In this document: positions 15,715-19,876 of the stretch, piece by piece
Layout: each line of letters starts with the position of its first letter
Position numbering within the stretch: position 1 is the stretch's first letter
Source of the DNA: Bacillota bacterium
Lineage (GTDB): Bacteria > Bacillota > Sulfobacillia > RBS10-35 > JAJYVN01
Direction: 5' to 3'
DNA length: 64,000 nt
NCBI GenBank assembly: GCA_021806565.1
Contig: JAJZXK010000001.1
Span: 32,314 to 96,313, forward strand
Made by a program: the position numbers and the translations under genes
The notes under the pieces: generated by a model
Told to the model about the DNA's origin: nothing
Databases searched by the model: none
The model's input: the letters and a program-made list of their open reading frames with translations, nothing else

Positions 15715-15812
15715 ACGCTAGGGGTGTCCGCCGCGGGGTGGACTGAGAACGGGTCGTGGGACCTGTACCCTTGAACCTGATCTGGGTCACACCAGCGGAG
15801 GGAAGCGGCCGT
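15715..15812 (+). promoter_or_regulatory. TPP (THI-box) riboswitch upstream of thiC
   Basis: Core motif present: GGGGUG...CUGAGA...ACCCUUGAACCUGAUCUGGGUCACACCAGCGGAGGGAAG. It lies about 90 nt upstream of the thiC ATG. Confidence 0.85.
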
Positions 15813-15902
15813 GGGGTATGCAACGGTCTGGCACCAGGTGGGTGACGGGCCGTTGTGTGCTTTGATCCGCTTCGAGCGGCGTCCCGGAGGAGGGATCGAG
15901 GC

Positions 15903-17684
15903 ATGGCAACATCGGAGCGCGATTTTGCGCTGACCGTCGGAGCGTTGCCCGGCAGCCGCAAGGTCTATGTCGTGGGCAGCCGACCGGACATTCGGGTTCC
16001 GTTCCGCGAGGTCGCGTTGGCTCCGTCCCAGGCGGCGGGGGGTGATGTCCCCAACGAACCCGTGCGGCTGTATGACACCGGCGGCCCCTACACCGAGGAT
16101 GCGGCCACCGTCGATGTGCGGGCCGGCCTGGCGCCGCGCCGCGCGGCCTGGATCACGGGACGCGCCGACGTCGAATCGTATGAGGGCCGGGCGGTCCGAC
16201 CCGAAGACGACGGCAGGCCGCACGGGGGCAAGGCCGCCGATCTGCCAAGGGCGCGCCGGGCCCCCCTGCGGGCGCGGGGGACGGGGGCCGTCACCCAGAT
16301 GGCGTACGCCCGGCGTGGCGAGATCACGGCGGAGATGGAGTTCGTCGCCCTGCGCGAAGCATTGACGCCGGCCTTCGTGCGCGACGAGGTCGCAAGCGGC
16401 CGGGCGATCATCCCGGCGAACATCAACCATCCGGAGAGCGAGCCGATGGCGATCGGGCGCAACTTCCTTGTGAAGATCAACGCCAACATCGGCAACTCCG
16501 CCGTCGGCTCCTCCATCGAGGAAGAGGTCGAGAAGCTGGCGTGGGCGGTGCGCTGGGGTGCGGATACCGTGATGGACCTGTCGACCGGCCGCAACATCCA
16601 TGCCACGCGGGAATGGATCCTGCGGAACTCCCCGGTGCCCATCGGCACCGTCCCCATCTACCAGGCGTTGGAGAAGGTTGGCGGCGACGCGGCCAGCCTG
16701 ACATGGGACGCCTATCGCGACACCCTCATCGAGCAGTGCGAGCAGGGTGTCGACTACTTCACCATCCACGCCGGTGTGTTGCTGCGCTATGTGCCGCTCA
16801 CCGCCCGCCGGGTGACGGGGATCGTCTCGCGCGGCGGTTCCATCTTGGCGGCGTGGTGTCTGGCGCACCACCAGGAGAACTTCCTTTACACGCACTTCAC
16901 CGACATCTGCGAGATCCTGCGTGCCTACGACGTGTCCGTGTCGCTGGGCGATGGGCTACGGCCCGGTTCGATCGCGGACGCCAACGACGAGGCGCAGTTC
17001 GCTGAGCTCGAGACCCTGGGCGAACTGACGCGCATCGCTTGGGAGCAGGACGTTCAGGTGATGATCGAGGGGCCTGGCCACGTGCCGTTGCACAAGATCG
17101 TCGAGAATGTGGAGCGGGAGCGGGCGGTCTGCCACGACGCGCCGTTCTACACCCTCGGTCCGCTGACCACCGATATCGCGCCCGGCTACGACCACATCAC
17201 ATCCGCCATCGGGGCGGCGGTGATCGGCTGGCACGGCACGGCGATGCTGTGCTACGTCACACCCAAGGAACATCTGGGGCTGCCCAACCGCGACGACGTG
17301 CGCGAAGGGGTCATCGCCTACAAACTCGCGGCGCACGCGGCGGACCTCGCCAAGGGGCACTCCCAGGCACAGCGATGGGACGATGCACTTTCCAAGGCGC
17401 GGTTCGAGTTCCGCTGGCGCGATCAGTTCCACCTCTCGCTGGACCCGGAGCGCGCCATCTCCTACCACGACGAGACGTTGCCGCACGAGGCGGCCAAGAC
17501 CGCCCACTTTTGCTCGATGTGCGGGCCGAAGTTCTGCAGCATGCGCATCACGCAGGACATCCGCGACTTCGCCGCGCGGGAGGGCTTGGGCGTCGAGGAC
17601 GCCGTGCGGGCCGGGATGCAGAGCAAGGCGGCGGAGTTCCGCGCCGCGGGCGGCGAGTTGTATGGTCCGGAGAGCAGGGCGTAG
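15903..17684 (+). CDS. thiC: phosphomethylpyrimidine synthase ThiC
   Basis: Full-length ThiC with the C-terminal [11 protein letters not shown] motif. Confidence 0.95.
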
Positions 17685-17703
17685 CGGAGGAGGGGGTGTG
17701 CGC

Positions 17704-18873
17704 ATGCAGCCGGACCATTTCCTGGGCTATCGGCGACCCGCGGGTGATGTAGGGGTCCGCAACCATGTGCTCCTCCTGCCGACGATCACCTGTGCGAACC
17801 AGGTGGCGGCTTCGGCCGCCACCCTGGCGCGCGGCGCGGTGTTTGTGACGCACCAGCACGGCTGCGGGCAGACCGGTCGCGACTTGGAACAGACCATGCG
17901 CACCTTCATCGGCTATGGCAGCAACCCCAACGTATACGGGGTGGTCGTCTGCGGTCTGGGGTGCGAGGCGGCCTCGGCCCGCATCGTGGCCGAGGGCATC
18001 GCTCGCCGGGGGGGCAAGCCGGTTGAGTTGGTGCTGATCCAGGAGTCCGGTGGCACCCTGCGGGCCATCGAAGATGCGGCGCGGGCCGCCGCGTGGATGC
18101 TGCAGGACGCGTCCGAATTGGTGCGGGAGCAGGTGCCTGTGTCCGAGTTGGTGCTGGGGACCGAATGCGGCGGGTCGGACGCCTGCTCCGGTATCTCGGC
18201 CAATCCGGCGGTCGGTTCGGTCGCCGACCGGTTGGTCGACGCCGGGGGCACCGTGCTGTTGGCGGAGACGACCGAGTTGATCGGGGCCGAGCACCTCCTG
18301 GCTGAGCGGGCCGCACGGCCGGAGGTCGCGCAGCGGGTGTATGAGGTGATCGAGCGTTATGAGCGCGAGATCCTCGCCACCGGTTACGATATGCGCGGCG
18401 GCAATCCCTCGCCAGGCAACATGGCCGGCGGGCTGACGACAATCGAGGAGAAGTCGCTGGGGGCGGCCCACAAGGCCGGGACGCGCCCCCTGATGGACGT
18501 CATCCCCTACGCGACCCGTCCGAAGACGCGCGGCCTGGTCTGGATGGATACGCCCGGCCACGACATCGAGCAGTTGACCGGCATGGTGGCCGGCGGGGCG
18601 CAGGTGGTGCTGTTCACCACGGGGCGCGGCACGCCGACCGGCTGCTGCATCGCCCCCGTCCTCAAGATCGCCACCAACACCGCGACGTTCGAACGGCTGC
18701 GCGACAATACCGATGTGGATGCGGGGGCCATCGTCGCCGGGACCGCTTCGGTGGAGGAGGTCGGGGAGCGTTTGTATGGGGAGTTGGTGCGTACCTGCTC
18801 GGGCCGGCTGACCCGCGCGGAGGTTCTCGGGCACCAGGAGTTCGGCCTCTGGCGCATCGGACCGACGCTCTAA
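17704..18873 (+). CDS. UxaA-family (altronate/galactarate dehydratase-like) large subunit
   Basis: D-galactarate dehydratase/altronate hydrolase C-terminal domain. GGAGGAGGGGG RBS sits 19 nt after the thiC stop. Confidence 0.75.
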   Translation: MQPDHFLGYRRPAGDVGVRNHVLLLPTITCANQVAASAATLARGAVFVTHQHGCGQTGRDLEQTMRTFIGYGSNPNVYGVVVCGLGCEAASARIVAEGIARRGGKPVELVLIQESGGTLRAIEDAARAAAWMLQDASELVREQVPVSELVLGTECGGSDACSGISANPAVGSVADRLVDAGGTVLLAETTELIGAEHLLAERAARPEVAQRVYEVIERYEREILATGYDMRGGNPSPGNMAGGLTTIEEKSLGAAHKAGTRPLMDVIPYATRPKTRGLVWMDTPGHDIEQLTGMVAGGAQVVLFTTGRGTPTGCCIAPVLKIATNTATFERLRDNTDVDAGAIVAGTASVEEVGERLYGELVRTCSGRLTRAEVLGHQEFGLWRIGPTL

Positions 18874-18906
18874 TGGCTGGCACCGGGGGAGGCGGCGGCG
18901 GTGGCC

Positions 18907-19206
18907 ATGGCGTCCCTGCTCGTGCTGGACGCACGCGATAACGTGGCGGTCGCTCTGGAGTCGCTGGAAGCGGGTAGCCGCGCACGTGTCGCCGGCGGCG
19001 CGCTGGAGTTGCGGGATGCCGTGCCCATGGGCCACAAGGTGGCGCTGCGTGCGATCGCCGCCGGCGAGCAGGTCCTGAAGTATGGGGCGGTCATCGGGCG
19101 CGCCACAGTGGACATCGCTCAGGGTGCGCACGTCCACGTCCACAACCTCGAAGGCCTGCGCGGCCGGGGCGACCGACGCCCCGGGGCGTCGGGGCAGGAT
19201 GGCTGA
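18907..19206 (+). CDS. SAF-domain small subunit of a UxaA-like dehydratase
   Basis: ASLLVLDARDNVAVALESLEAG...VPMGHKVALRAIAAGEQVLKYG matches the SAF/UxaA N-terminal domain. Confidence 0.7.
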   Translation: MASLLVLDARDNVAVALESLEAGSRARVAGGALELRDAVPMGHKVALRAIAAGEQVLKYGAVIGRATVDIAQGAHVHVHNLEGLRGRGDRRPGASGQDG

Positions 19207-19876
19207 GGAGGTCGTTGGGGTGCGGATCGCGCGCATGCTGGACCTGAGTCAGGAGCTCTACCCGAACAGTCCGGGACTGCCCGACGTGCCGCCGCCATCC
19301 ATGGAGCTGTTGCGCAACGGCCCGCGCGACGGTTGGAACCTGGAGGTGTTGACCACCCCGCTGCATTGGGGGACGCACTTGGACGCCCCGGCGCACATGG
19401 CGGAGTTTTCACGCACCATGGACACCTATGCGGTGGAGGAACTCCAGGGGCCGGCCGTGGTCTGCGACCTGCGCGGTAAGGCCCCGCGGGCACCGATCAC
19501 AGTGGCAGATCTCGAGGGCGCGCAAGTGTCGGCCGGCAGCGTCGTCCTGCTGGTGACCGGCTGGGGGGCGTATCTGGGGTGGAGCCGCCGCTGGGTGCTT
19601 GAGTCGCCCTTCCTCGATCCGGCGGCCGCCAGGTGGCTCGCCGGGCGTGGCATCCGGGGTGTGGGCATCGACCACCTGAGCATCGGCGGTCTTGGGCCGG
19701 AGAACCCCGAGACGCACCGCGCCCTGCTCGGGGCCGATGTCTGGATCGCCGAGAACCTCTCCTATCCGGATGAGATCCTTGACGGCGGCCCCTGGCACGT
19801 CATCGCCCTACCTGTGCGGATCCGGGCGGCGAGCGGCGGTCCCGCCCGTGTCGTGGCGGTGCGTGGGGCGCCGTAG
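19199..19876 (+). CDS. cyclase family protein (kynurenine formamidase-like fold)
   Basis: HLDAPAH...VGIDHLSIG motifs. Its ATG overlaps the SAF gene stop. Confidence 0.7.
   Translation: MAEEVVGVRIARMLDLSQELYPNSPGLPDVPPPSMELLRNGPRDGWNLEVLTTPLHWGTHLDAPAHMAEFSRTMDTYAVEELQGPAVVCDLRGKAPRAPITVADLEGAQVSAGSVVLLVTGWGAYLGWSRRWVLESPFLDPAAARWLAGRGIRGVGIDHLSIGGLGPENPETHRALLGADVWIAENLSYPDEILDGGPWHVIALPVRIRAASGGPARVVAVRGAP

Follow-up and report, generated by a model that had tools for sequence, protein, structure and literature searches.

The stretch of DNA analysed here, hereafter the window, is a 64-kb chromosomal segment with a GC content of 70% from a spore-forming, flagellated member of the Bacillota. 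It contains a plus-strand locus in which a thiamine pyrophosphate (TPP) riboswitch and thiC are followed at close spacing by three genes, encoding the large subunit of a UxaA/GarD-superfamily dehydratase (UxaL), a SAF-domain small subunit and a cyclase-family metal hydrolase, and our analysis suggests that these three genes are likely to form a sugar-acid module and not to encode thiamine enzymes. The locus comprises the following features:

15710-15820, plus strand: TPP riboswitch aptamer (THI element), Rfam RF00059.
15815-15899, plus strand: expression platform, from RNA fold and duplex energies.
15903-17684, plus strand: thiC, phosphomethylpyrimidine synthase (radical S-adenosylmethionine (SAM) enzyme), 593 aa, from NF006763 and Pfam.
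17685-17703, plus strand: thiC/uxaL junction of 19 nt, with the Shine-Dalgarno (SD) sequence GGAGGAGGGGG at 17686-17696, read from the sequence.
17704-18873, plus strand: UxaL, large (catalytic) subunit of a UxaA/GarD-superfamily dehydratase, 389 aa, from Pfam GD_AH_second and GD_AH_C.
18901-19206, plus strand: SAF-domain small subunit of the dehydratase, 101 aa, from Pfam SAF.
19220-19876, plus strand: cyclase-family (kynurenine-formamidase fold) metal hydrolase, probable aldonolactonase, 218 aa, from PF04199.

The thiC stop codon (TAG, 17682-17684) and the ATG start codon of UxaL at 17704 enclose a gap of 19 nt, and gaps of 27 and 13 nt separate UxaL from the SAF gene and the SAF gene from the cyclase gene, confirming the original prediction, made from the letters of this DNA, that a UxaA-family large subunit, a SAF protein and a cyclase follow thiC in tight succession. 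Each of the three downstream cistrons is preceded by a strong SD sequence. The SAF gene starts with GTG, with an alternative ATG at 18907 (product of 99-101 aa), and the cyclase gene likewise starts with GTG, with GAGGAGG 7 nt upstream and an alternative ATG at 19199 that overlaps the SAF stop codon. The next gene, a murE-like gene at 20010-21596, is convergent to the cyclase gene and the transcription unit thus ends at 19876; the region downstream of the cyclase stop codon folds no better than shuffled sequences (z -0.3), and no clear operon terminator was identified there. The GC content at third codon positions (GC3) of the three appended genes is 0.83-0.87, equal to that of the neighbouring genes. 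When the window was compared with the related locus L081, at a synonymous divergence (dS) of ~0.65, the ratios of nonsynonymous to synonymous divergence (dN/dS) were 0.063 for UxaL, 0.23 for the SAF gene, 0.14 for the cyclase gene and 0.094 for thiC; judged by these ratios, the three appended genes are under purifying selection. Two other accounts of the cassette were rejected: recent horizontal acquisition is ruled out by its native GC3 of 0.83-0.87, and gene decay by dN/dS values of 0.06-0.23, the catalytic Cys and His residues and the HxGTHxDxPxH motif also being intact.

A THI-box in front of thiC had been proposed and was confirmed, as RF00059 matched 15710-15820 with 58.8 bits (gathering score 54.3, E 5.6e-9) over model positions 1-105 of 105, and a covariance model built in this analysis scored the window aptamer at 116 bits. 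The product of the first gene reached the ThiC equivalogs NF006763 of NCBIfam with 985 bits (cut-off 650) and TIGR00190 with 709 bits (cut-off 460), and carries the Pfam domain ThiC_Rad_SAM (633 bits) together with the ThiC-associated domain. The aptamer ends 82 nt upstream of the thiC start codon, a layout also seen in L081, where the aptamer is kept (58.9 bits), and upstream of thiC in the sister lineages L177 and L178. The expression platform opens with a long, GC-rich and strong hairpin (15815-15861) whose tail is poor in U, followed by a helix (15862-15899) in which the anti-SD GAUCCGCUUC (15864-15873) pairs with the thiC SD GGAGGAGGGAUC (15886-15897). Part of the anti-SD, CCGCUUC (15867-15873), is complementary to the 3' strand of aptamer stem P1, GAAGCGG (15802-15808). 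The platform RNA folds with -56.2 kcal/mol (z -3.7), the duplex energies are -20.9 for anti-SD:SD and -12.5 for P1-3':anti-SD, and a forced ON conformer with the P1-3':anti-SD pairing lies only 1.1 kcal/mol above the minimum-energy OFF fold, in which the SD is sequestered. In L081, both helices are retained with altered sequence and the U-tract is absent. This layout is classic for a translational switch, and in the folding model the window riboswitch looks like an SD-sequestering switch on thiC translation. Unlike the leaders of the window (15710-15902) and L081, the leader of sister lineage L177 (5806-6000) carries a canonical terminator consisting of a stem and U8; between related lineages, thiC leaders show turnover of the expression platform (terminator versus apparent SD sequestration).

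The 19-nt gap leaves no room for a terminator, making read-through from thiC into UxaL likely. The original prediction would have fallen if a terminator or promoter lay between these two genes, and none was found: a terminator scan detected no terminator-like site between thiC and the cassette, and a promoter scan detected no sigma-70 consensus site in 15300-20300, the latter being weak evidence in a genome of 70% GC. One terminator-like match at 17489-17504 lies in the coding sequence of thiC and was taken as chance. We infer both the co-transcription and the mode of riboswitch action from these features, and co-transcription of thiC with the three appended genes appears likely. Real responsiveness of the cassette to TPP is an evenly poised question, since even a shared transcript need not bring the appended genes under TPP control when the platform sequesters the thiC SD and every downstream cistron has its own. 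Thus, of the earlier claim that the genes are co-transcribed under TPP control, the first part is supported by a densely packed, same-strand unit without terminator room, kept in L081, while the second became uncertain given the SD-sequestering platform.

It could also be argued that the cassette is expressed independently, either from a promoter of its own in the 3' end of thiC or because the riboswitch controls thiC translation only. This explanation concerns regulation and is compatible with a sugar-acid function. The SD-sequestering helix, the alternative pairing within 1.1 kcal/mol, the U-poor tail and the missing U-tract of L081 speak for it, as does the strong SD of each downstream cistron, and at another locus (L144, see below) an analogous adjacency is broken by a canonical terminator, showing that such adjacencies can be regulatory accidents. 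However, the 19-nt gap without a terminator and the lack of a sigma-70-like promoter in 15300-20300, for what this is worth at 70% GC, point the other way; moreover, untranslated leader-proximal mRNA is often subject to polarity or decay, and this would tie the downstream genes to the switch; the sister riboswitch L177 is transcriptional. Overall, we consider independent expression unlikely.

To characterise the products of the cassette we turned to protein families. UxaL carries the domains GD_AH_second (131 bits) and GD_AH_C (333 bits) without a SAF domain, its nearest solved structure is GarD (6u7l, E 1.9e-64), and in an alignment with 120 homologues (121 sequences) its Cys30, Cys54, Cys87, Cys155 and Cys161 as well as His21, His50, His52 and His197 are invariant. 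The small protein matches Pfam SAF with 38.8 bits, aligns with residues 5-78 of the galactarate dehydratase model and is 44-61% identical to the products of UxaL-adjacent SAF genes of other loci. Together they have the make-up of a heteromeric UxaA/GarD enzyme, with GD_AH_second and GD_AH_C on one polypeptide and SAF on an adjacent small one. The GarD equivalog TIGR03248, with a cut-off of 730.85 bits, was reached neither by UxaL (254.8 bits) nor by the SAF protein (46.4 bits). As a sequence-based prediction, conversion of an aldonate to a 2-keto-3-deoxy-aldonate by UxaL and the SAF protein is well supported.

The cyclase matches PF04199 with 101.2 bits (gathering score 23.1) and stays below the arylformamidase equivalog TIGR03035 (70.1 against 223.05 bits), indicating that it is not a KynB orthologue. 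The residues of its HxGTHxDxPxH motif (H56, T59, H60, D62, P64 and H66 in the numbering of a 225-aa product) are invariant in its subfamily, as are H173 and E185, and its best matches in the PDB are the uncharacterised "metal-dependent hydrolases" 8hmo and 1r61. The subfamily is small, with identity to the window protein dropping in steps from 88% to 55-47% (~25 clusters) and from there to at most 39%; ~27 clusters in all reach 47% or more. Literature searches for PF04199 combined with lactonase, and for TPP riboswitches combined with altronate dehydratase, found nothing.

For the genomic distribution, 80 genome and 80 metagenome loci with UxaL relatives were retrieved, loci of the closest homologues were added, and the four window proteins together with typical sugar-pathway proteins served as tblastn queries against all of them. 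Of the loci searched, 160 carry a UxaL relative at 55-82% identity, with at least 2.5 kb of upstream flank in 122 and at least 1 kb of downstream flank in 136. tblastn detected thiC in none of the 160. A SAF gene is present in 138 loci and adjacent to UxaL in 137; the SAF gene precedes the large-subunit gene in 120 of the 160, and the order of the window, large subunit then SAF, is a minority order seen in 17. The other genes include members of the fumarylacetoacetate-hydrolase family (FAH; 82 loci), short-chain dehydrogenases/reductases (SDR; 40 loci) and PfkB kinases (24 loci), and a distant cyclase-family gene occurs in a single locus, ~9 kb off and on the opposite strand.

TPP aptamers were sought with Rfam in 38 loci (412 kb), with the covariance model, built from four thiC leaders and the E. 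coli thiM and Arabidopsis aptamers, in all 179 loci (2.5 Mb), and with a motif regular expression; no aptamer was found outside the window, its lineage (L081, L092) and the loci fetched for their thiC (L176-L179). The permissive expression for the TPP core (CTGAGA...ACCTGATC...GCG.AGGGA) gave many chance matches in the 2.5 Mb, the convincing ones only in the window lineage, and Rfam did not support a weak covariance-model match in locus L006 (17.7 bits, E 0.16). Linkage of the three appended genes to TPP or thiamine thus did not recur in independent lineages, and the proposed profiling of the cassette against TPP riboswitches of other genomes found the link in one shallow lineage and never outside it.

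Two of the loci deserve separate mention. In Geobacillus, UxaL stands in a row with a SAF gene, a PfkB kinase of the 2-keto-3-deoxygluconate (KDG) kinase type and an Eda-type aldolase; in Geobacillus sp. C56-T3 (L175, CP002050.1, 746-11847) a single plus-strand row holds genes for IclR, FAH, an aldehyde dehydrogenase, LarE/LarB/LarC-type nickel-pincer cofactor synthesis, NicO, dihydrodipicolinate synthase, SAF, UxaL, PfkB kinase and Eda-type aldolase, placing a sugar-acid dehydratase beside Lar cofactor biosynthesis. At L144 (842-4778) a SAM riboswitch (87.7 bits) is followed by an NlpA/MetQ gene, a canonical terminator (~1968-2000), a LarA-like racemase/epimerase gene, UxaL and SAF. The terminator between metQ and the LarA-like gene led us to reject control of this UxaL by the SAM riboswitch, and the look-alike indicates that adjacencies of riboswitch-controlled genes and UxaL can arise by chance.

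The complete four-gene arrangement was found only in the lineage of the window and in one relative (L081/L082, assembly GCA_027335515.1), with 93% identity for UxaL, 90% for ThiC, 87% for the cyclase and 79% for the SAF protein, and a junction of 17 nt. Beyond this relative, ThiC homologues fall from 90-92% directly to 79% identity or less. In assembly GCA_021803205.1, a TPP riboswitch likewise precedes thiC (78%), the next gene is convergent (L177), and UxaL (78%) lies on another contig without thiC (L001). In metagenome 3300041539, a glycoside hydrolase (GH) family GH26 gene comes 300 nt after thiC (L178), and UxaL (81%) is flanked by a PfkB kinase gene and an FAH gene on a different contig (L084). 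Since thiC is monocistronic and UxaL is located elsewhere in these sister lineages, the fusion would be derived and shallow, a history of rearrangement reconstructed from present-day gene order. As a further observation, UxaL of the high-GC sister lineages (L083-L087, L180) is accompanied by FAH without an adjacent SAF gene, and in L083-L086 also by a PfkB kinase, and their SAF gene accompanies SDR and cyclase genes elsewhere, among housekeeping genes (prs, glmU, pth, mfd), so that the pathway is scattered in this clade.

All five contexts of cyclase relatives inspected outside the window are sugar-oxidation clusters, and none of them has thiC or a TPP riboswitch. In Paenibacillus apiarius the cluster consists of LacI, SAF, UxaL, SDR, cyclase, FucU, SDR, FAH and LutABC, the last of which takes up the lactate step by consuming the lactate from an L-fucose-type pathway. 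Another cluster contains LacI, cyclase, an aldo-keto reductase (AKR) and a zinc-dependent alcohol dehydrogenase beside GH95, GH42, GH43 and GH127 glycosidases, and a third contains FucU, LacI, SDR, cyclase, SAF, UxaL and an IlvD-type dehydratase, with an HpcH aldolase further on; in a high-GC relative, SAF and SDR genes are followed at some distance by the cyclase gene. Beside the cyclase orthologue of L090 (8675-11078) and L091 (6680-9083), two UxaL-type open reading frames (ORFs; 302 and 390 aa) come in tandem after the SAF gene and may represent a duplicated or partly truncated large subunit.

The non-phosphorylative L-fucose pathway proceeds through a mutarotase, an aldose dehydrogenase, a lactonase, an aldonate dehydratase, a 2-keto-3-deoxy-L-fuconate (KDF) dehydrogenase and an FAH-family hydrolase to pyruvate and lactate (PMC6336799; PMC11378808). 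The gene set of the clusters with cyclase orthologues, among which fucosidases also occur, is that of a non-phosphorylative L-fucose-type pathway. The lactonase is the only step without an obvious gene in those clusters, making the cyclase-fold hydrolase a natural candidate, and the cyclase-family hydrolase is thus, from gene context, most likely an aldonolactonase. Window UxaL is 59-68% identical to an FAH-linked subfamily (accompanied in Geobacillus by KDG-kinase-type and Eda-type aldolase genes) and 47-50% identical to the copies in fucose clusters, and the substrates of the cyclase and of UxaL with SAF would have to be read from these affiliations.

We consider it likely that the locus consists of a normal TPP riboswitch-thiC unit to which a three-gene sugar-acid module, not made up of thiamine enzymes, was fused by a recent, lineage-restricted rearrangement. 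The cyclase-family metal hydrolase would open an aldonolactone, and the aldonate so formed would be converted to a 2-keto-3-deoxy-aldonate by the two-subunit (SAF plus large) UxaA/GarD-type, presumably Fe-dependent dehydratase, with L-fuconate, D-arabinonate or L-galactonate as the probable type of substrate; in a non-phosphorylative (oxidative) sugar pathway, cyclase and dehydratase would thereby fill steps 2 and 3. Given a gap of only 19 nt, transcription from the thiC promoter probably continues into the three genes. As the riboswitch seems to mask the thiC ribosome-binding site, any effect of TPP on these genes may be merely indirect, by way of mRNA stability or polarity, or may be lacking altogether. 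The suggestion that the cassette represents an undescribed thiamine step was not borne out, as thiC is absent from all 160 UxaL loci, orthologues lie in contexts of sugar and sugar-acid catabolism, and thiC of the sister lineages is monocistronic.

Several observations nevertheless weigh against a fused sugar-acid module. The window, over its 64 kb, contains no aldose dehydrogenase, FAH, SDR, KDG kinase or aldolase gene apart from an AKR gene (2654-3733) 12 kb upstream, and the neighbourhood is housekeeping in character (queCDE, murE, folP/folC, spo0A). The cassette is a new mosaic that combines UxaL and SAF of the FAH-linked type, a cyclase of the fucose-cluster type and an inverted subunit order. 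The tight thiC junction has been kept across a dS of ~0.65, implying that it has been tolerated or selected for some time. Furthermore, only five contexts of cyclase relatives, at 47-55% identity, were inspected, and a literature search found no biochemically characterised member of the cyclase subfamily or of the UxaL subfamily nearest to the window gene.

Some of these observations would fit a role of the cassette in thiamine or radical-SAM housekeeping, in which it would remove or recover a compound connected with ThiC activity. ThiC releases 5'-deoxyadenosine, and one variant of this explanation is an oxidative route for the 5-deoxyribose derived from it, from the lactone to 5-deoxyribonate and on to 2-keto-3,5-dideoxypentonate; in another, the formamidase-fold protein deformylates a formylaminopyrimidine. 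The tight, terminator-free junction kept in L081, the purifying selection on all three genes, the unusual mosaic in a housekeeping region with neither sugar-pathway partners nor a LacI regulator nearby, and the location of the related genes of sister lineages among housekeeping genes instead of sugar islands can all be counted in its favour. However, the linkage is limited to one shallow lineage, with thiC or a TPP riboswitch in 0/160 UxaL and 0/5 cyclase loci, thiC is monocistronic in the sister lineages, and the orthologues reside in clear fucose or sugar-acid clusters. In addition, the operon has no dehydrogenase or aldolase to complete a 5-deoxyribose route, the cyclase falls far below the arylformamidase equivalog, and a survey of TPP regulons contains no such genes (PMC3766115). 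A housekeeping role of this kind is therefore very unlikely, and its strictest form, in which a lactone hydrolase and a dehydratase were captured behind thiC to serve ThiC, for example in 5-deoxyribose disposal or another repair or salvage, with true co-regulation by TPP, is slightly less likely still; if correct, it would extend thiamine or radical-SAM by-product metabolism by a new pair of enzymes. Finally, a SuyAB-like sulfo-lyase, in which the split UxaA-family enzyme would degrade sulfolactate made via ComA 3 kb upstream, is hardly credible: within the UxaA/GarD superfamily, SuyAB is the textbook example of a heteromeric enzyme (PMC6336799), and genes for ComA (phosphosulfolactate synthase, 11861-12631, plus strand) and a D-2-hydroxyacid dehydrogenase (13129-14088, minus strand) lie 2-3 kb upstream of the riboswitch, also in L081, but ComA belongs to a separate transcription unit with a divergent gene in between, the closest UxaL relatives (59-82%) occur with FAH, SDR and KDG-kinase/aldolase genes and not with sulfonate genes, and, as a weaker point, UxaL retains the Cys residues invariant among its homologues, candidate counterparts of the four Fe ligands of the literature.

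With a sugar-acid module behind thiC as the preferred explanation, the locus calls for caution in reading operons, as a riboswitch followed by tightly packed genes need not place those genes in the pathway of its ligand; here the neighbourhoods of orthologues resolved the case. Operon fusions can in this way bring unrelated genes under possible cofactor control. The analysis also draws attention to an uncharacterised cyclase-fold subfamily that is repeatedly embedded in L-fucose-type oxidative clusters and could plausibly supply a non-homologous aldonolactonase.

Other features of the window were noted in passing. An ORF of 483 aa (14204-15655, plus strand) ends 55 nt before the TPP aptamer; it has no match in Pfam or NCBIfam and is kept in L081 with 76% amino acid identity and a dN/dS of 0.16. 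A cyclic di-AMP (ydaO-type) riboswitch (55685-55828, plus strand, 65.6 bits) lies directly upstream of an ORF for a cell-wall hydrolase with LysM and Peptidase_M23 domains (55878-57017, plus strand). In the product of the ORF at 59467-61896 (plus strand, 809 aa), residues 71-443 form a histidinol dehydrogenase domain and residues 503-797 a class I/II aminotransferase domain, apparently as a HisD-HisC fusion. A gene for SelA, the L-seryl-tRNA(Sec) selenium transferase (45884-47308, plus strand), indicates use of selenocysteine in the host. The window also encodes queCDE, murE, folP/folC and recN as well as SpoIVB, Spo0A, FliD and flagellin, the last four in agreement with a spore-forming, flagellated host.

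Among known systems, the closest counterpart of the dehydratase is a heteromeric L-fuconate dehydratase of the UxaA/GarD family, inferred from gene context in Paraburkholderia mimosarum (A19U_RS0100650/55; PMC6336799), and in the fucose locus of C. jejuni Cj0483 is the predicted dehydratase (PMC6946681); both examples are themselves context predictions and not assays. Like these, the window enzyme consists of two polypeptides, a SAF small and a GD_AH large subunit with invariant Cys and His residues, and such pairs co-occur with orthologues of the window cyclase and with FucU, SDR, FAH and LutABC. The window differs from the fucose-type clusters in that its UxaL is only 47-50% identical to their copies, the two subunit genes stand in reverse order and further pathway genes are missing from the neighbourhood; as UxaL is nearer (59-68%) to the subfamily linked to FAH and KDG kinase, its substrate may differ from that of the fucose-cluster enzymes. 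E. coli GarD (6u7l) and UxaA share the superfamily and the set of SAF, GD_AH_second and GD_AH_C domains with the window proteins, but are single polypeptides, whereas the window proteins are split and, with 255 and 46 bits against the GarD cut-off of 731, are not GarD orthologues. The (2R)-sulfolactate sulfo-lyase SuyAB has the same superfamily membership and the same organisation in a small and a large subunit. The four conserved Fe-binding Cys residues of UxaA/GarD dehydratases are reported to be absent from this lyase (PMC6336799); SuyB thus reportedly has no conserved Cys set, whereas window UxaL keeps the Cys residues invariant among its homologues, as candidates for these ligands, and has relatives in sugar-acid and not in sulfonate contexts.

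The cyclase shares the PF04199 fold family and the HxGTHxDxPxH motif with KynB and isatin hydrolase (4cob, 4co9, 4cz1, 5nmp), but in contrast to KynB its orthologues are associated with sugar oxidation and not with tryptophan catabolism. Its proposed role, from lactone to aldonate, is that of L-fucono-1,5-lactonase, described as an amidohydrolase of COG3618 (Hobbs et al., 2013, as cited in PMC6336799 and PMC11378808), whose gene likewise stands beside aldose dehydrogenase and dehydratase genes. The fold of the COG3618 lactonase is unrelated to that of the cyclase, which as a lactonase would be a putative non-homologous replacement. As for the riboswitch, the TPP regulons surveyed in 249 genomes are made up of genes for thiamine biosynthesis and for transporters (PMC3766115). 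The window agrees with the TPP-thiC operons of Bacillota in its aptamer, the position of the aptamer and the first gene, and differs from them in appending three non-thiamine genes and in a platform that appears to sequester the SD of thiC.

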